From: an uncultured bacterium
GTDB taxonomy: Bacteria; Methylomirabilota; Methylomirabilia; Methylomirabilales; CSP1-5
Reading direction: 5' to 3'
NCBI GenBank assembly: GCA_964558395.1
Contig: CAZLDS010000003.1
Span: 13,830 to 77,829, forward strand
Length of the DNA stretch: 64,000 nucleotides
Under the pieces are notes generated by a model. It saw only the letters and a list, made by a program, of their open reading frames with translations, was not told the DNA's origin and did no database searches. Position 1 is the first letter of the stretch; every line of letters begins with the position of its first letter. Both the position numbers and the translations under genes were made by a program. This document shows, piece after piece, positions 3,934-57,830 of this stretch.

Positions 3934-4068
3934 GTTCAGAGTTCATGGTTCATGGAAGTCAGTCATGCCAAAAAGATCCGTTTTTGTTTTTCTCCCTGAG
4001 CGCTGAACTCCGAACCATGAACGGCTTACGTTTGAGCCCTCAACTCCAGACCCTCAACCCTGAGCCAC
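3934..4068. repeat. composite heptamer-repeat hairpin element (GTTCA/TGAAC family) plus a second CCCT-type heptamer run
   Basis: Left arm is GTTCAGA GTTCATG GTTCATG (3934-3954). The core is T-rich with a CAAAAA/TTTTTG mini-hairpin. Right arm is CTGAACT CCGAACC ATGAAC (4003-4022). A further run GAGCCCT CAACTCC AGACCCT CAACCCT GAGCCAC follows at 4034-4068. Confidence 0.85.
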
Positions 4069-4070
4069 GT

Positions 4071-4715
4071 ATGATTGCCATTATCGACAGTGGGATCGCC
4101 AACCTCCGGAGCGTCGAGAAGGGATTCGAGAGGGTCGGGGTTCCGGCGCGCGTGATCCGGGAGCCTGCCGCGCTGCGCGACGCAGCCGGGATTGTCCTCC
4201 CGGGAGTAGGGGCGTTCTCCGATGGGATCGCCACGCTGGAAGCGGCGGGGTTTATTGATCCTCTGTTCCGGGAAATCGAATCTGGGAAAGCCATCCTGGG
4301 GATTTGTCTGGGCCTGCACTTTCTCTTTTCGGAGAGCGAGGAATTCGGCCTACATAAGGGCCTCGATCTGATCCGCGGCCGGGTCCGTCGCTTCCCCGGA
4401 ACCGCCCCGTCCTCAGTCCTCAGTCCTGAGTCCTCTCTCCTGAAGGTTCCCCACATGGGGTGGAATCAGGTGGTCCTCAAAAGAGAGGCCCCAATCATGA
4501 AAGGGATCCTGGACAACTCGTATTTTTACTTCGTGCACTCCTACTACGTAGAGCCAGAGGAAGAGGGCACCGTTGCCGGTATCACAGAATACGGCATCCC
4601 TTTTACCTCCATGATCTGGAAGGACAACCTCTTCGCGACCCAGTTTCATCCGGAAAAGAGCCAAACCCTGGGCCTCCAGATTCTCGCCAATTTTGGTGCG
4701 CTGGCGCAGAAGTAG
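4071..4715 (+). CDS. hisH: imidazole glycerol phosphate synthase, glutamine amidotransferase subunit
   Basis: MIAIIDSG..., GICLGLHFLF (Cys nucleophile), VPHMGWN and FHPEKS motifs. Start is set at ATG 4071, because the track ORF start at 3945 reads through the repeat element. Confidence 0.9.
   Translation: MIAIIDSGIANLRSVEKGFERVGVPARVIREPAALRDAAGIVLPGVGAFSDGIATLEAAGFIDPLFREIESGKAILGICLGLHFLFSESEEFGLHKGLDLIRGRVRRFPGTAPSSVLSPESSLLKVPHMGWNQVVLKREAPIMKGILDNSYFYFVHSYYVEPEEEGTVAGITEYGIPFTSMIWKDNLFATQFHPEKSQTLGLQILANFGALAQK
4409..4443. repeat. intragenic tandem heptamers GTCCTCA GTCCTCA GTCCTGA GTCCTCT CTCCTGA within hisH
   Basis: Period-7 repeat read directly from the sequence. In the hisH frame it is translated as SSVLSPESSLL. 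Confidence 0.8.
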
Positions 4716-4717
4716 AG

Positions 4718-4818
4718 CTGTCACCAGCCCCCTGTCAGCCGTCAGCATCTATATAATAGTAGTCGACTGTCCGCATGGATAAAGATTCTTAGCTGACTCC
4801 TAATAGCTGATCGCTCAA
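4718..4818. repeat. heptamer-repeat hairpin element, GTCAG(C)/(A)GCTGA family
   Basis: Left arm is CTGTCAC CAGCCCC CTGTCAG CCGTCAG (4718-4745). The core is AT-rich and contains TATAAT (4752-4757). Right arm is AGCTGAC TCCTAAT AGCTGAT CGCTCAA (4791-4818). Confidence 0.8.
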
Positions 4819-5567: not shown

Positions 5568-6382
5568 CAAAACGGATCATCCCCTGCCTTGATGTGAAAG
5601 ATGGGCGTGTGGTCAAGGGGACTCGGTTCGTAGACCTTCGAGACGCGGGGGATCCAGCGGAGGTTGCGGAGCGGTACGATCGGGAGGGGGCTGATGAGCT
5701 CGTCTTCCTCGACATCACCGCCTCGGCCGAACGGCGAAAGATCATAATCGGGGTCGTGGAGCGGACGGCAGAGCGGGCGTTCACCCCGCTGACCGTGGGC
5801 GGGGGGATCCGGGATTTGGAAGACATCCGGGCCATCCTTCTGGCTGGGGCGGATAAGGTCTCTCTCAACACCGCAGCCGTTCAGAATCCGAAGCTGATAC
5901 GCCAGGCGGCTGAACGGTTCGGCAGCCAATGCATCGTTCTCGCCATCGACGCCAAGCGGAGGGAGTTCAGGGTTCAGAGTTCAGGGTTCAGAGAAATACC
6001 AGACACTGATCCATTAACCATGAACCCTGAACTGTCGTGGGAGGTGTATATTCACGGTGGTCGCACACCGACCGGACTCGAAGCGGTACAGTGGGCTGAG
6101 GCGGGAGTGGCGTCTGGGGCGGGGGAGATCCTCCTGACCAGCATGGATCGTGACGGGACGCGGGACGGGTACGATTTGGAGCTTACTGCAGCGGTTGCCG
6201 AGCGTGTGGGCGTCCCAGTGATCGCCTCGGGGGGTGCCGGGACGATGGCGCATCTCTATGAGGCCTTTGCCTTCGGAAAAGCCGATGCGGCCCTTGCCGC
6301 GTCCATCTTTCACTTCCAGGAAATCTCGGTCCCCGAGGCGAAAGCATATCTCAGTGGGCGGGGCATCGTCGTGCGCCCCTAG
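5561..6382 (+). CDS. hisF: imidazole glycerol phosphate synthase, cyclase subunit (carries a 23-aa repeat-encoded insertion)
   Basis: [37 protein letters not shown] and ASGGAG motifs. ATG 5561 overlaps the hisA stop (ATGCTAG). At 273 aa it exceeds the roughly 250 aa that is typical. Confidence 0.92.
5965..6034. repeat. GTTCA/TGAAC heptamer hairpin element inserted in frame in hisF
   Basis: GTTCAGG GTTCAGA GTTCAGG GTTCAGA lies at 5965-5992, followed by a 28-nt spacer. TGAACCCTGAAC at 6021-6032 is the exact reverse complement of 5965-5976. Confidence 0.9.
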
Positions 6383-6399: not shown

Positions 6400-6516
6400 G
6401 GTTCATAGTTCATAGTCCACGGTTGAGAGTGAACGGCTCATGGATCAGGGTTCACGGTGGCGAGTAGGGCCTGGGAGATCCGTTCCTGTTCTTGCTCTGA
6501 ACCCTGAACCCTGAAC
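6400..6516. repeat. GTTCA/TGAAC heptamer hairpin element
   Basis: Eight phased heptamers lie at 6400-6455: GGTTCAT AGTTCAT AGTCCAC GGTTGAG AGTGAAC GGCTCAT GGATCAG GGTTCAC. After a spacer comes CTGAACC CTGAACC CTGAAC at 6497-6516. Confidence 0.9.
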
Positions 6517-8082: not shown

Positions 8083-10467
8083 ATGGATGATCGAACACGG
8101 ACCGGGCTAGAATTTGCCGGAATCCTCGATGTGCTCCGGGGAGCAGCGATCACTCCCTTCGGGAAGGAGCGGGCGTCCGCGGTCGGTCCTCTGGAGAGTC
8201 TGGAGCGCATAGAGGAAGCCCTGGCCGAGGCGGGGGAAGCCAAGGAGCTGCTACTCAGGGGTGCGGAGCCGCCTTACGGAGGAGTGACCGATATCCGGCC
8301 CCACCTCAGGCGCGCCAGAATCGAAGGAGCCTCGCTCGACGCAGGCTCGCTCTGGGATATCCATGAGATCTTGGTGACGGGTGGCCGACTCCGAACCTTT
8401 TTCCAACACGCACAGGACGCGTCGCCCCTCGTCTGGAAGCGAGCGAGCGGCATCTGTGTTCCGGAAGCCCTCTGCGCGGCGATCGAAGCGGCCATTACAT
8501 CAGACGGAGAGGTAATCGACGCGGCCAGCCCGAGGTTGCAGGGGGTGCGGCAGAAACTGCGCGCCCTGCGGGTCGCCATCATCGCGAAACTCGAACGGTA
8601 TCTTGTTGCTCCAGGCTACCAATCGGCCCTCGCCGAACCGATTGTCACCGTCCGCAACGACCGATACGTCATTCCGGTCAAGTCGGCTGCCAAGGCCAAG
8701 CTCCGCGGAATCGTCCAGGATCAATCGGGGAGCGGCCTGACCATTTTCCTCGAGCCGACCCCGGTCGTGGAGATGAACAATCGGCTGCGCATGCTGCGCC
8801 GCCAGGAAAAGGAGGAGGTGGCGAGGGTCCTCCGAGCGCTCACCGCACACGTTGGGCGCGAAGCGGAAATCATCGGGGCGCTCCTGGAATTTCTCGGCGA
8901 GTTGGACCTTCTCATGGCGAAGGGGCGTCTCGCGGTCCGCCTGGGGGCTCACCGTCCCCGGGTGACGCAGGATCGCCGGTTCATCCTGCGTCAGGCTCGC
9001 CATCCCTTCCTCGTGTTGGGCGGTGACGCTGGGCTGAGTGGCGAGGCCGGCACGGCGGGACCCGCGGCGGTGCCAATTGATATTGAAGTCGGCGGCGCTT
9101 TCACCGCGGTGGTCATCACCGGGCCGAACACGGGTGGGAAGACGGTGGCGCTCAAGACCGCTGGTCTTCTAACCGTAATGACCCTGTCGGGCCTCCTCAT
9201 TCCGGCCTCTCCGGACAGCCAGGTTCCCCGATACGAGGCGGTCTTCGCCGACATCGGGGATGAGCAAAGTATTGAACAGAGCCTGAGCACCTTCTCTTCC
9301 CATATGAGCCAGGTGGTCAAGATCCTGGCCCACGCGGGCCATGAGACCCTGGTGCTCCTAGATGAACTCGGGGCGGGGACCGACCCGTCGGAAGGGGCGG
9401 CCCTCGGGATGGCCATTCTCGCGAGCCTCAACGGGCGAGGGGCATCGGTGATCGCGACCACGCATCTGGATGCCATTAAGTCCTTTGCGGCCCTCACCCC
9501 TGGCGTGGAAAACGCCAGTGTGGAGTTCGATGTCCACCGTCTGACGCCGGAGTACCAGGTCCGGCTGGGTCTCCCAGGCAAGAGTTACGGGCTGGAGATC
9601 GCGGGGCGTCTCGGGCTGCCGCAACCGGTCTTGGAAAAGGCACGGGCATTCCTCCCCGAGGGACACCGAAAGACGCAGGCCCTCTTGGAGACCCTCGAGG
9701 TGGACCGCCGACAGGTCGATGGTCTCAGGGCAAAGCTTCAGGAAGAGCTCCGGTGGGCCTCGTCCCTCAGCGGGGAAGCGGAGGAGCTTGTTGTGCGGCT
9801 TCGCGCGGGGGTCAAGGACCTCAAGCGTCGCGTCCGAGAAGAGGCGAGGGCGCTCCTTGCCGAATTCCGTCAGCGCGGGGAGGGCCTGATTGGGGTGCTC
9901 CGGGAACGGGGGGTTCGCCCAGAGGAGGTACGAGTCTTTCGACAGGGGCTCGAGGAGCTGGGGGCGAGGGTTGAGGCGGTGGCGGCACCCCGGGCTGACG
10001 CTTCTCCGGGGGACGGCGAGATTGGCCCGGGCCGGTGGGTGTCCGTCGCGGGCCTCGGGCGGCAAGGGCGTGTCCTAACGCCGGTGTCTCAACAGGGAAC
10101 CGTAGAAGTGGAGCTGAGTGTGGGCAGGGTTCATCTGCCCGTATCCGCGCTCAGCCCCGCTTCTGTCCCGAAGCGGCGCCGCGGCGAGATGCCCTTATTC
10201 GTCGAGAAAATCGAGTCCATTTCTGCCGAAATCAACGTGGTTGGGTGCACCGTAGAAGAGGCGACCCGGCGTCTCGAAAAGTACTTGGATACCGCCTTTG
10301 TCGAGGGGTTTCGACGGGTCAGGGTGATCCATGGCAAGGGGACCGGAGCGCTTCGCAAGGGGGTCCACAAATTCTTGACGGACCACCCCATGGTGGAGGG
10401 GTTTCAGCTGGCCGAGATGAGCGAAGGGGGAATCGGCGCCACCATGGTGGTGCTGAGGGAGCGATAG
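8083..10467 (+). CDS. mutS2: endonuclease MutS2 (MutS ATPase plus C-terminal Smr domain)
   Basis: Walker A motif ITGPNTGGKT, DELGAGTDP, and a C-terminal Smr region (INVVGCTVEEA...VIHGKGTGALR). Confidence 0.9.
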   Translation: MDDRTRTGLEFAGILDVLRGAAITPFGKERASAVGPLESLERIEEALAEAGEAKELLLRGAEPPYGGVTDIRPHLRRARIEGASLDAGSLWDIHEILVTGGRLRTFFQHAQDASPLVWKRASGICVPEALCAAIEAAITSDGEVIDAASPRLQGVRQKLRALRVAIIAKLERYLVAPGYQSALAEPIVTVRNDRYVIPVKSAAKAKLRGIVQDQSGSGLTIFLEPTPVVEMNNRLRMLRRQEKEEVARVLRALTAHVGREAEIIGALLEFLGELDLLMAKGRLAVRLGAHRPRVTQDRRFILRQARHPFLVLGGDAGLSGEAGTAGPAAVPIDIEVGGAFTAVVITGPNTGGKTVALKTAGLLTVMTLSGLLIPASPDSQVPRYEAVFADIGDEQSIEQSLSTFSSHMSQVVKILAHAGHETLVLLDELGAGTDPSEGAALGMAILASLNGRGASVIATTHLDAIKSFAALTPGVENASVEFDVHRLTPEYQVRLGLPGKSYGLEIAGRLGLPQPVLEKARAFLPEGHRKTQALLETLEVDRRQVDGLRAKLQEELRWASSLSGEAEELVVRLRAGVKDLKRRVREEARALLAEFRQRGEGLIGVLRERGVRPEEVRVFRQGLEELGARVEAVAAPRADASPGDGEIGPGRWVSVAGLGRQGRVLTPVSQQGTVEVELSVGRVHLPVSALSPASVPKRRRGEMPLFVEKIESISAEINVVGCTVEEATRRLEKYLDTAFVEGFRRVRVIHGKGTGALRKGVHKFLTDHPMVEGFQLAEMSEGGIGATMVVLRER

Positions 10468-21860: not shown

Positions 21861-21902
21861 CCGATAACCGACCACCGACGACCCACGACCCACGACCGCA
21901 AG
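21861..21902. repeat. tandem heptamers CCGATAA CCGACCA CCGACGA CCCACGA CCCACGA CCGCAAG
   Basis: Six phased units read directly from the sequence. Confidence 0.8.
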
Positions 21903-29390: not shown

Positions 29391-29406
29391 TTGCAGCCAG
29401 AGGCGG

Positions 29407-29512
29407 GAGACCAGAGACTGAGACTGGAGACTAGAGACTGGACCAGGAAGAGACGATCGTGCTTTCCCGTCTCCGGTCTCCTGGCCCTCGTCTCATTGCT
29501 TTAGCTGGTCTC
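29407..29512. repeat. GAGACTG/GTCTC heptamer hairpin element
   Basis: GAGACCA GAGACTG AGACTG GAGACTA GAGACTG GACCAGG lies at 29407-29447. The complementary arm CGTCTCC GGTCTCC TGGCCCT CGTCTCA ... GGTCTCC lies at 29468-29512. Confidence 0.85.
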
Positions 29513-38106: not shown

Positions 38107-38673
38107 ATGAGGCTGTTTATTGCCATCAATGTGGATCCTTCCCTGAGGCCTCCCCTGATTGAGATCCAGGGAACGCTCAAGGCGACTCGGGCACCGGTCA
38201 GCTGGGTCAAGCCGGAGAACCTTCACTTCACTCTGAAGTTCCTGGGGGAAATATCCGAGGCTCACCTGCCGGCCGTTCGTGAGGCCTTGCGCGGCTCCCT
38301 GGCCGGGATGCAGTCCTTTCTGGTGTCATTGGCGGGCGTGGGGACCTTCCCCCCGAAGGGGAGGCCGCGAGTCGTCTGGGTTGGGGTAGAGCGGGGTGCC
38401 GATGAGATGACAGCGCTCCGGGAGCGGATCGACACAAGCCTCCTGCCGCTCGGGTTTCCGCGCGAGCAGCGGCCTTTTCAGCCGCATCTGACCCTGGGCC
38501 GGGTCAAGAGTGGCGGGCGACTCGATCCGCTGCTCGATGGTCTCCACAGTGCCGCGGTTGGTCAGGTGGGACAGATGCAGGTGGCATGCGTCGACCTAAT
38601 GCAGAGCCAGCTCCACCCCGCGGGGGCGATCTACACCTCTGTGGAAGCGGTTCCGTTGGAAGAGGGGACGTAA
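38107..38673 (+). CDS. thpR: RNA 2',3'-cyclic phosphodiesterase (2'-5' RNA ligase family)
   Basis: MRLFIAI... with two H-x-T/S-x motifs, HFTLKFLG and HLTLGR. Confidence 0.85.
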   Translation: MRLFIAINVDPSLRPPLIEIQGTLKATRAPVSWVKPENLHFTLKFLGEISEAHLPAVREALRGSLAGMQSFLVSLAGVGTFPPKGRPRVVWVGVERGADEMTALRERIDTSLLPLGFPREQRPFQPHLTLGRVKSGGRLDPLLDGLHSAAVGQVGQMQVACVDLMQSQLHPAGAIYTSVEAVPLEEGT

Positions 38674-40010
38674 TGGTCGGCCGGAAGGGGACCGCCCAGT
38701 TGCGGAAAGCGGCCGGGGAGATCTTCCAGGCGGCATTGGAAGCGGCGAATCCCCGCGCTTCGATCCACCGCCATCTGCGCCGTGATGGAGAGAACCTCCT
38801 GGTGAATGGAGGCGTGTACGATCTCGGCCAGGGCAAAATCTATGTGGTGGGTGCCGGGAAGGCCGCGGCGGCGATGGCAGGCGCCGTGGAAGAGCTCCTC
38901 GGGGATCGCGTGAGCGACGGCGTGGTTGTGGTGAAGGACGGCCACGGCGTTCCTTTACGGCGCATTCGCACCCACGAGGCGAGTCATCCGCTCCCCGATG
39001 CGCGAGGGGTTGAAGGGACCGCGGCAATTCTCGCCCTGCTTGCCCAGACTCGCCCGGAGGATCTGGTGATAGTCCTGATCTCCGGCGGGGGTTCGGCCCT
39101 GGTGCCGGCTCCCGTCGCAGGCATAGCGCTCCGCGAGAAGCAAACCGTTACGCGCGAGCTTCTCGCCTCCGGGGCCACCATTGAAGAAATCAATGCGGTC
39201 AGGAAACACTGCTCCCGACTCAAGGGGGGGCAGATGGCACGGGCAGTCCAGCCGGCTTCGTGCCTCACGTTGGTGCTCTCGGATGTCATCGACGACCCGT
39301 TGGATGTCATCGCCTCCGGTCCCACAGTCCCGGACCCGACCACGTACGAGGATGCCTTGCGGGTCCTTTCTCGCTACGCGCTGCATGATCGAATGCCCGC
39401 GAGCATTGGGCGGCATCTGGAAAAAGGGGCGCGGGGAGAAGTATCGGAAACCCCGAAAACCGGCGATCCCTGCTTCGAAAAATCGCGGCATGTCATCGTG
39501 GGGAATAACCTGGAGTCCCTCCTGGCGGCCCGAGATCGGGCGGCACGGCTGGGATTTCATACCCTGCTCCTGACCAGAGGCCTGCGCGGAGAGAGTCGGG
39601 AGGTAGCCAGGGTATTAGCCGCCTTTCTTCTGGAGACCCGGCGGTCCGGCCACCCCATTCCGCCCCCGGCCTGCCTGCTCCTGGGGGGAGAGACCACCGT
39701 CACGATCCGTGGGAAAGGCAAGGGGGGGCGAAGTCAAGAACTGGCACTGGCCGTGGCGATCGACATCGCCGGCGCAGAGGGTTGCGTCATTTTCAGTGCC
39801 GGAACCGATGGAAGCGATGGGCCTACCGACGCGGCCGGGGCGGTGGCGGACGGTGAGACCTACCCTCGGGCCAAAGCGGCGGGGTCGGATCCACTCCGCG
39901 CCTTGGAGGACAACGATGCGTATCACTTTTTTCAAAATCTGGGAGACCTGATCCAGACCGGTCCCACCCTGACGAACGTGATGGATGTCACCCTACTCCT
40001 TGTGGGCTAG
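38673..40010 (+). CDS. glycerate 2-kinase / hydroxypyruvate-reductase-like protein (DUF4147 plus MOFRL)
   Basis: About 445 aa. GAGKAA..MA, LISGGGSAL, HCS.LKGG, GGETTV...G.GKGGR.QE.AL and GTDG.DGPTDAAGA are typical of the MOFRL family. The start overlaps the thpR TAA (TAATG). Confidence 0.8.
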   Translation: MVGRKGTAQLRKAAGEIFQAALEAANPRASIHRHLRRDGENLLVNGGVYDLGQGKIYVVGAGKAAAAMAGAVEELLGDRVSDGVVVVKDGHGVPLRRIRTHEASHPLPDARGVEGTAAILALLAQTRPEDLVIVLISGGGSALVPAPVAGIALREKQTVTRELLASGATIEEINAVRKHCSRLKGGQMARAVQPASCLTLVLSDVIDDPLDVIASGPTVPDPTTYEDALRVLSRYALHDRMPASIGRHLEKGARGEVSETPKTGDPCFEKSRHVIVGNNLESLLAARDRAARLGFHTLLLTRGLRGESREVARVLAAFLLETRRSGHPIPPPACLLLGGETTVTIRGKGKGGRSQELALAVAIDIAGAEGCVIFSAGTDGSDGPTDAAGAVADGETYPRAKAAGSDPLRALEDNDAYHFFQNLGDLIQTGPTLTNVMDVTLLLVG

Positions 40011-40065
40011 TCCTGAGTAGATCGAAGAACTAGTCCTGAGCACATCGGAGGGTTAGTGCTTCGAT
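40008..40065. repeat. direct TAGTCCTGAG repeats plus a 7-bp inverted repeat
   Basis: TAGTCCTGAG occurs at 40008-40017 (including the TAG stop) and again at 40031-40040. ATCGAAG (40021-40027) pairs with CTTCGAT (40059-40065). Confidence 0.75.
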
Positions 40066-57520: not shown

Positions 57521-57739
57521 AGCGGGGTCCCCGAGGAGCGCATCTCAGGGGATTCCCGGACGACACCCGACTCGAAAGTATCGAAGGACCCCCAGACGGC
57601 CGCATTGGCCCCCCACGGACCGGTCGTCTTCCATCAGTGCTGGACCCACGGATTAAGCAGCCTTACCTCTGCAGGGTCGCGGTCATCTTGCCGATGGTTG
57701 CCAACTGAAGGCTTTCCTGATCACACCCCAACCCCCGTT

Positions 57740-57830
57740 GGTTCATGGTTTGTGGTTCATAGTTCATGGGGTAAGGTAAAACCCGGACTCGGACTCCCTC
57801 TCATGAACCCTGAACCTTGAATCATGAACG
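57740..57830. repeat. GTTCA/TGAAC heptamer hairpin element
   Basis: Left arm is GGTTCAT GGTTTGT GGTTCAT AGTTCAT (57740-57767). After a spacer comes ATGAACC CTGAACC TTGAATC ATGAACG (57803-57830). Confidence 0.85.

Follow-up and report, generated by a model that had tools for sequence, protein, structure and literature searches.

The 64-kb window analyzed here (the whole stretch of 64,000 nucleotides, from contig CAZLDS010000003.1 of an uncultured member of the Methylomirabilota) opens with a histidine biosynthesis operon, and the element under study is a short tandem array of heptanucleotides that is translated within one of its genes, hisH. Between positions 1 and 7300 on the forward strand, the genes are ordered murA-hisG-hisD-hisB-hisH-hisA-hisF-hisIE, and an identical order with agreeing Pfam labels was observed on the syntenic contig L204. 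The features that are central to the analysis are as follows:

4071..4715, + strand: hisH coding sequence, 214 aa, the glutaminase subunit of imidazole glycerol phosphate synthase (TIGR01855, nearest named relatives, conserved residues, and an AlphaFold2 [AF2] model)
4395..4448, + strand: codons for a loop, P109-V126, of 18 residues between F108 and P127 of PHMGWN (alignments and AF2 model)
4409..4443, + strand: five phased heptamers, GTCCTCA GTCCTCA GTCCTGA GTCCTCT CTCCTGA (sequence, Tandem Repeats Finder [TRF], and identity at a lag of 7 nt)

The assignment of the gene product as HisH is supported by the equivalog profile TIGR01855 (204.4 bits versus a cutoff of 105.4, with 207 residues aligned to 195 profile positions) and by its nearest database relatives, which are named HisH from candidate division NC10 / Methylomirabilales. 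Residues C79, H193, and E195 were invariant among 50 relatives and, judged from the conserved GICLG and HPE motifs, are assigned as the catalytic triad of a class I amidotransferase. The AF2 model, which was built on an alignment of 50 relatives, had an overall pLDDT (predicted local distance difference test) of 87.6 and a predicted template modeling score (pTM) of 0.86, and the best Foldseek matches to it were solved HisH structures, with template modeling (TM) scores of ~0.8. The partner subunit HisF scored 382 bits against TIGR00735 (cutoff 294.55), with 272 residues on 254 profile positions. An in-frame ATG at 3945, upstream of 4071, would lengthen HisH by 42 residues; the annotated start at 4071 is favored by close relatives, most of which are 214 aa in length and begin with MIAIID. 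No obvious Shine-Dalgarno sequence was found before the ATG at 4071 (positions 4060-4075), because a heptamer array extends to 4 nt before the start codon.

An earlier, sequence-only reading of this DNA had described the five phased GTCCTCA-type heptamers at 4409-4443, and these were confirmed both in the sequence and by TRF, which reports a period of 7, 3.9 copies, and 90% matches where five units are counted by eye. Identity at a lag of 7 nt was 22/28 (binomial P = 4e-8 against a background of 0.28); the array is imperfect, and only two of its units are perfect. The array begins at the last position of the P113 codon, ends at the first position of the K125 codon, and, as the reading had it, is translated as (P)SSVLSPESSLL(K), residues S114-L124. 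An identical array is present in L206, a metagenome contig that was assembled independently and encodes a HisH of 95% identity; it is therefore not an artefact of assembly. No significant RNA fold was predicted for the array (z = -0.79; 37 of 200 shuffles folded equally well), and a hairpin or other RNA structure within it was ruled out on that basis. A 6-bp inverted repeat, GGAACC/GGTTCC, flanks the array in the fold; of the relatives for which loop DNA was inspected, L206 alone retains it. No second GTCCTCA array was found elsewhere in the 64-kb window, and no target-site duplication was seen by eye at the array.

The loop that carries the array is long relative to those of the solved structures. 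The linker between RF and VPHMGWN had been counted as 17 residues, which is correct (PGTAPSSVLSPESSLLK), and the statement that the Thermotoga linker is very short was also correct. In the HMMER alignment to 1gpw_B (Thermotoga) and 1ka9_H (Thermus), the query loop is faced by a gap of 13 residues (vklrs-------------rrlphmgwn), and the corresponding loop comprises 5 residues in Thermotoga. We compiled a cross-phylum baseline of 80 HisH loci from the matches listed by a contig scan with the HisH protein, in which the universal KVPHMGWN pattern predominated; among the matches listed, the best was 59% identical and none were from NC10. In these, loops ranged from 5 to 25 residues, with a mode of 8 (34/80), followed by 6 residues in 14 and 13 residues in 10. 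The length of this loop is naturally variable, and the window loop is ~10 residues above the cross-phylum mode. In the AF2 model, the loop is the unstructured stretch of low confidence, with block means of 60 and 71 for pLDDT, only isolated strand-type residues at 111-112 and 124-125, and no secondary structure element of 3 or more residues. The loop lies directly before W131, the counterpart of W123 in Thermotoga HisH, a residue that makes a hinge contact with R249 of HisF (PMC12828452). We found no evidence of a function for the loop or for the array.

We then examined the loop among the best 120 HisH relatives, all of which were close and NC10-type (65% identity or more); those with names were almost all NC10/Methylomirabilales. 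Of the 62 closest of these, 50 had a loop of 18 residues, four had one of 25, and one had 11; a few HisH had larger loop inserts. Identity among relatives was 45% in the loop versus 85% for the remaining HisH protein. The DNA encoding the loop comprised heptamer arrays of differing unit in several lineages:

L206 (214 aa): GTCCTCA type, five units, as in the window
L141 (18-residue loop): GTCCTCA TCCCTCA GTCCTCA GTCCTCA GTCCTGA
L204, L205, and L142: four GCCCTCA units, with codon columns matching those of the window (HisH of 214 aa in L204 and L205)
L089, L110, and L124 (18-residue loops): three to four GTCATCG units
L201 (HisH of 221 aa): eight GTCTCCA-type units
L202 (HisH of 207 aa): equal to L124 minus exactly three units, from GTCATCG to GTCATCG
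L210 (HisH 70% identical): five CAGCCAT units, with a one-base offset

The number of units thus varies among relatives, which is the outcome that a comparison of copy number had been proposed to reveal: the hisH loop holds 2 units in L202, 5 in L124, and 8 in L201, with steps of exactly 21 nt. The two length variants (207 and 221 aa versus 214) each differ by three units and are bounded by repeats, so that both length changes are multiples of 3 and keep the frame, as had also been anticipated. Across 14 NC10 loop DNAs, mean identity was 0.52 at a lag of 7 and 0.46 at a lag of 14 compared to 0.20-0.28 elsewhere. Identity was flat across lags (~0.34) in 37 other HisH loops. The absence of a period-7 peak in these pooled non-NC10 linkers disfavors the possibility that the periodicity is coincidental, as does the absence of orthologs in unrelated phyla that share both length and sequence with the window loop; the loops of L006 and L041, from other phyla, also comprise 18 residues, and their sequences are unrelated. 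Successive units are read in three phases, and the 7-nt period is therefore a property of the DNA rather than a product of selection on the peptide. The loop peptides lead to the same conclusion, since they differ wholly between lineages (LSPE, IGHR, LSPQ, and AISR). Within each lineage, the copies of the unit have all changed in concert.

The hisH array belongs to a class of element that recurs in the window. A strict scan of the 64 kb identified 4 period-7 arrays where 0.07 were expected (30 Markov shuffles) and zero arrays at periods 6 and 8-15, and period 7 accounts for 11 of the 31 TRF rows. Among tandem periods, 7 alone is over-represented in the window, and its over-representation was also observed in L204. 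Most heptamer arrays in the window are inverted pairs with a 30-60-nt spacer that fold as hairpins; the hisH array, which has no inverted partner, is the exception in form. The other elements are as follows:

3934..4022, + strand: hisB-hisH spacer element, inverted arms GTTCAGA GTTCATG GTTCATG ... CTGAACT CCGAACC ATGAAC with a 47-nt loop (fold z = -2.61; syntenic in L209)
4034..4066, + strand: degenerate CCCTCAA/CCCTGAG array just upstream of the hisH start, loosely similar to the hisH array
4732..4810, + strand: hisH-hisA spacer element, inverted arms TGTCAGC CGTCAGC ... TAGCTGA ... TAGCTGA (z = -0.75, not significant)
5963..6034, + strand: in-frame element in hisF, GAGTTCA GGGTTCA x2 ... TTAACCA TGAACCC TGAACTG, encoding 24 residues (RNA fold z = -4.58)
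6400..6516, + strand: hisF-hisI spacer arrays, GGTTCAT AGTTCAT ... CTGAACC CTGAACC CTGAAC (TRF)
21867-21898: lone intergenic array of ACCGACG
29406-29442: lone intergenic array of GGAGACT
57738-57829: intergenic hairpin with TGGTTCA/TGAACC arms (RNA fold z = -4.1)

The reverse complement of the unit at 29406-29442 gives GTCTCCA, which is also the unit of the L201 hisH loop.

Of the about nine heptamer elements in the window, five fall between hisB and hisI, in a span of 2.7 kb (post hoc P ~1e-5), and this clustering is repeated in L204. Inverted heptamer arrays occur as a pair in each of the spacers from hisB to hisI, and their unit varies by spacer and by relative. In L204, the array that is syntenic with the one just before hisH is composed of CCCTCAA (TRF 9967-9991), a unit that it has in common with the hisH array of that contig. 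The hisH-hisA spacer elements are syntenic in L204 and L209, where they are composed of other units and where both arms have changed together. That a second his gene of the operon carries repeat-derived coding sequence was also borne out, given that hisF contains the heptamer-built, in-frame insertion at 5963-6034, directly after its AIDAKRR motif. In terms of the Thermotoga complex, this position would come after the catalytic Asp, on the side that faces away from HisH, and contact between the hisF insertion and the HisH loop is not favored. The hisF element is built from other units in L204, L209, and L212, its arms are not complementary in L204 and L209, and it is absent from the hisF of L211 (251 aa), where the his spacers are short (47 and 9 nt) and hold no arrays. 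Units are shared among neighboring arrays of the same genome: CCCTCA(N) is present in both hisH and hisF of L204 as well as in the spacer that precedes hisH, GTCCTCA in both hisH and hisF of L209, and GGTGCGA in the spacer and hisF of L212. Screening of the window with Rfam returned tRNA only, with no family matching the heptamer elements.

A further link proposed for the hisH array, namely that its core recurs as an intergenic repeat at 40008-40040, held only in part. The 9-mer AGTCCTGAG is indeed found at 40009-40017 and 40032-40040; kinship with the hisH array does not follow from it. The repeat in which it lies is:

40004-40057: 23-nt tandem repeat GGGCTAGTCCTGAGCACATCGAA, 2.3 copies, beginning at the stop codon of the open reading frame 38406..40010

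Both matches belong to one 23-nt tandem duplication, and 0.71 matches to AGTCCTGAG are expected by chance in the window. With the duplication counted once, the 9-mer match is within chance, and the link is not significant. The wider motif of the 40-kb repeat, CTGAGC....TCGAAG, is not enriched either (14 matches versus 9 expected in the window), and kinship between the hisH array and the 40-kb repeat was rejected.

Other repeat DNA was identified in the same HisH loop. In HisH of 222-236 aa, small palindromic inserts are nested within the heptamer array; those of L203, L207, and L208 have the form ACTTCGGCGAGC...GTCGAGCC and comprise 24-51 nt, and the hisH loop of L209 contains a 39-nt palindrome-like insert. 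In-frame perfect palindromes are present in the HisH loop of L087, L116, L123, L179, and L180, genes that are nearest to Nitrospira and whose products are 62-71% identical to those of L009 and L006. The palindrome in the L179 loop forms a predicted hairpin of ~130 nt (-127 kcal/mol) that is translated as 49 loop residues. Together, the heptamers of NC10 and the palindromes of the Nitrospira-like genes indicate that the HisH loop is a recurrent site of in-frame repeats in more than one lineage. Also in this loop, an NC10 class of HisH with 211 aa (L099, L108, L129, L139, L161, and L082) carries one or two extra 15-nt tandem copies that encode PGTRL-like pentapeptides.

Collectively, we consider it likely that the hisH array is a heptanucleotide array of a class that recurs in the window and in two related NC10 loci, that it resides in a permissive loop of HisH, and that it is translated there as a flexible segment whose sequence is unconstrained. 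The extension that results is rich in Ser, Pro, and Leu. The sharing of units by neighboring arrays within one genome suggests slippage and short-tract conversion or local copying, such that turnover of the arrays would proceed by slipped-strand mispairing together with short-tract conversion between nearby arrays. Selection would purge those changes that break the frame or add stop codons, leaving 21-nt steps, and short loops would arise by three-unit deletion, as in L202. The protein would tolerate the loop and would not use it.

Several observations weigh against this interpretation. The processes of slippage and conversion would have to be read from their end states, and the closest relative (95% identical) shows no change in copy number, so that slippage is not fast. 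In the Methylomirabilis-like L212 (67% identical), the loop comprises 18 residues and gives no heptamer signal, although its hisF has a heptamer hairpin, and the 211-aa class of NC10 HisH has a 16-residue loop without heptamers; the extension may therefore predate any recognizable array. Fifty of the 62 relatives share one loop length despite change in sequence, which could reflect selection on length and thus some role at the level of the protein rather than pure tolerance. Given its position beside the hinge residue, it is possible that the loop affects the HisH-HisF complex. The proposal that the loop extension is a repeat-derived insertion accordingly divides into two parts: it stands for the present content of the loop and for its length polymorphisms, and it does not stand for the origin of the long loop, given the heptamer-free NC10 loops of 16-18 residues. 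A long loop of this size was probably already present in the NC10 ancestor, in which case the array fills or overwrote it and did not create the extension as a whole. Old arrays may have decayed past recognition in the loops that are now heptamer-free; at the other extreme of length, the HisH loop of L211 comprises 11 residues. A constant length with free sequence could equally reflect mild selection on length or the rarity of three-unit slips.

These same observations are the strength of an alternative in which NC10 HisH has long possessed its extended loop, as a feature of the protein whose length is under selection, with the heptamers being a secondary overlay or a coincidence. The heptamer-free lineages, the persistence of 18 residues through sequence turnover, and the presence of 13-25-residue loops without period 7 in other phyla are all consistent with it. 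However, selection on a peptide cannot give a 7-nt period that is read in three phases as different residues, the peptides change fully while period and codon phase persist, and both repeat-bounded length changes are exact three-unit steps. As an account of the array itself we regard it as unlikely; it accounts for the age of the loop and not for its content, and it complements the interpretation of a translated array in a permissive loop more than it replaces it. The clustering of elements from hisB to hisI, in the window and likewise in L204, raises another alternative, namely that the arrays constitute a nucleic acid-level system of the his operon (protein binding, or processing or stability of the message) and that selection on RNA or DNA maintains those located within hisH and hisF. 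The folding of intergenic elements and of the hisF element as hairpins (z from -2.6 to -4.6) and the switching of units on both arms together in syntenic intergenic elements are compatible with such a system, yet the hisH array is itself unfolded, no Rfam family matches, and the arms of the hisF element lack complementarity in two relatives. Moreover, the elements are dispensable, in that the NC10 contig L211 has an intact his operon whose spacers are short, whose hisF lacks the insertion, and in which arrays are almost absent, and simple-sequence repeats that lack a function also swap units while keeping their period. We therefore view selection at this level as decidedly improbable for the hisH array. 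A broader version, which we consider improbable though slightly less so, would hold that NC10 has a process, specific for period and not for sequence, that makes and homogenizes 7-nt arrays, mostly in the form of inverted pairs; that these are concentrated in the his operon and exert an effect there through RNA or DNA (for example, by dividing the polycistronic message into segments or by binding a protein); that the hisH and hisF arrays are so kept; and that the HisH loop is a recurrent landing site for structured repeats in more than one phylum, namely heptamers in NC10 and perfect palindromes of up to ~130 nt in Nitrospira-like HisH.

Two further explanations have far less to recommend them. 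The palindromes nested in the arrays of longer HisH (L203, L207, L208, and L209), those of up to ~130 nt in the corresponding loop of Nitrospira-like HisH, and the precedent of Rickettsia palindromic elements for in-frame insertion into metabolic genes (PMC10969869) would all be expected if the array were the footprint or preferred target of very small mobile elements, akin to MITEs (miniature transposable elements with inverted repeats) or small dispersed repeats. Nevertheless, the window array has neither an inverted partner nor a visible target-site duplication, its flanking GGAACC/GGTTCC is confined to one close relative among the loop DNAs read, and GTCCTCA arrays are not dispersed through the window, such that this origin is highly improbable. 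Since the length of a unit is not divisible by three, the frame would shift whenever one is gained or lost, and hisH might in this way be switched reversibly off; phase variation can be driven by simple-sequence repeats that lie within coding sequence (PMC3315296). Only two units are perfect, however, and the gene is a housekeeping biosynthetic gene within an operon. No one- or two-unit variant was found in the NC10-type metagenome loci or in 12 contigs of named relatives, and no frameshifted one-unit allele was found in the three metagenome loci that failed extraction of HisH motifs, two of which were contig ends and one a gene from outside NC10 in which a premature stop lies beyond the loop. 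Given the absence of one-unit alleles and the housekeeping nature of hisH, a role in phase variation is very unlikely, to the point of being negligible.

The hisH array can be compared with four kinds of repeat that are already described. Heptameric repeats are reported to be in excess in the genomes of many bacteria, strongly so between genes in Xanthomonas and Nostoc, where about four units are preferred, and to be under-represented in coding DNA (PMC4692102). The short tandemly repeated repetitive (STRR) sequences of Nostoc/Calothrix and the GGGAATC repeats of Xanthomonas resemble the elements described here in having a 7-nt unit, many short arrays, and variable copy number, in being located mostly between co-oriented genes near gene ends, and in comprising several units per genome (PMC4692102). 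In contrast to these, the NC10 units are not G-rich and cannot form quadruplexes, most arrays in the window are inverted hairpin pairs, and two are translated inside conserved enzymes. By inspection, the published units (GGGAATC and GGGGA(C/T)T; PMC4692102) differ from GTCCTCA, and the likeness is one of kind and not of homology. NC10 is not among the groups described for heptamer repeats, and a search of full-text literature found, among the papers listed, none joining Methylomirabilis with heptanucleotide or heptamer. Elhai and co-workers (2008) are said to have described, in Nostoc, small dispersed repeats that sit inside heptamer arrays and in some cases inside genes. The palindromic inserts in the arrays of L203, L207, L208, and L209 resemble these, which we treat as a lead only; they differ in phylum and sequence, and the window array is without a nested insert.

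Rickettsia palindromic elements are alike in that repeat DNA is carried in frame in unrelated metabolic genes, at sites compatible with fold and function (PMC10969869); the sites in the window are the HisH loop and a turn of HisF. They are unlike it in being palindromes of ~150 bp with a conserved peptide (PMC10969869), whereas the hisH array is 35 nt, non-palindromic, without a conserved peptide, and changes in unit steps. When compared to the features of these elements and of MITEs, a palindrome or hairpin was lacking in the hisH array and present in the hisF element (z of -0.79 and -4.58, respectively), and dispersed copies with a conserved peptide were not observed (no other GTCCTCA array, and a loop identity of 0.45). 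With intragenic or contingency-locus repeats, the hisH array shares a coding tandem repeat that changes its copy number, presumably by slippage. It differs in that its unit is not a multiple of three and yet changes in three-unit steps only, and in that it resides in a housekeeping gene for which no off-state alleles were found; among relatives, single-unit alleles were absent and only three-unit steps or larger in-frame inserts were identified.

The hisH array cleanly illustrates an event of a kind already known and reveals neither a new mechanism nor a new function. What it provides is a case of repeat-driven change, at the level of DNA, in a core enzyme, in which period and codon phase are kept across a clade while unit and peptide are replaced. 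The site also marks where HisH, a much-used model of allostery and enzyme design, tolerates from 7 to ~40 extra residues, beside the hinge Trp. With these elements, NC10 joins the few groups, such as Nostoc and Xanthomonas, that have prominent heptamer repeats, which bears on the question of why the unit is seven.

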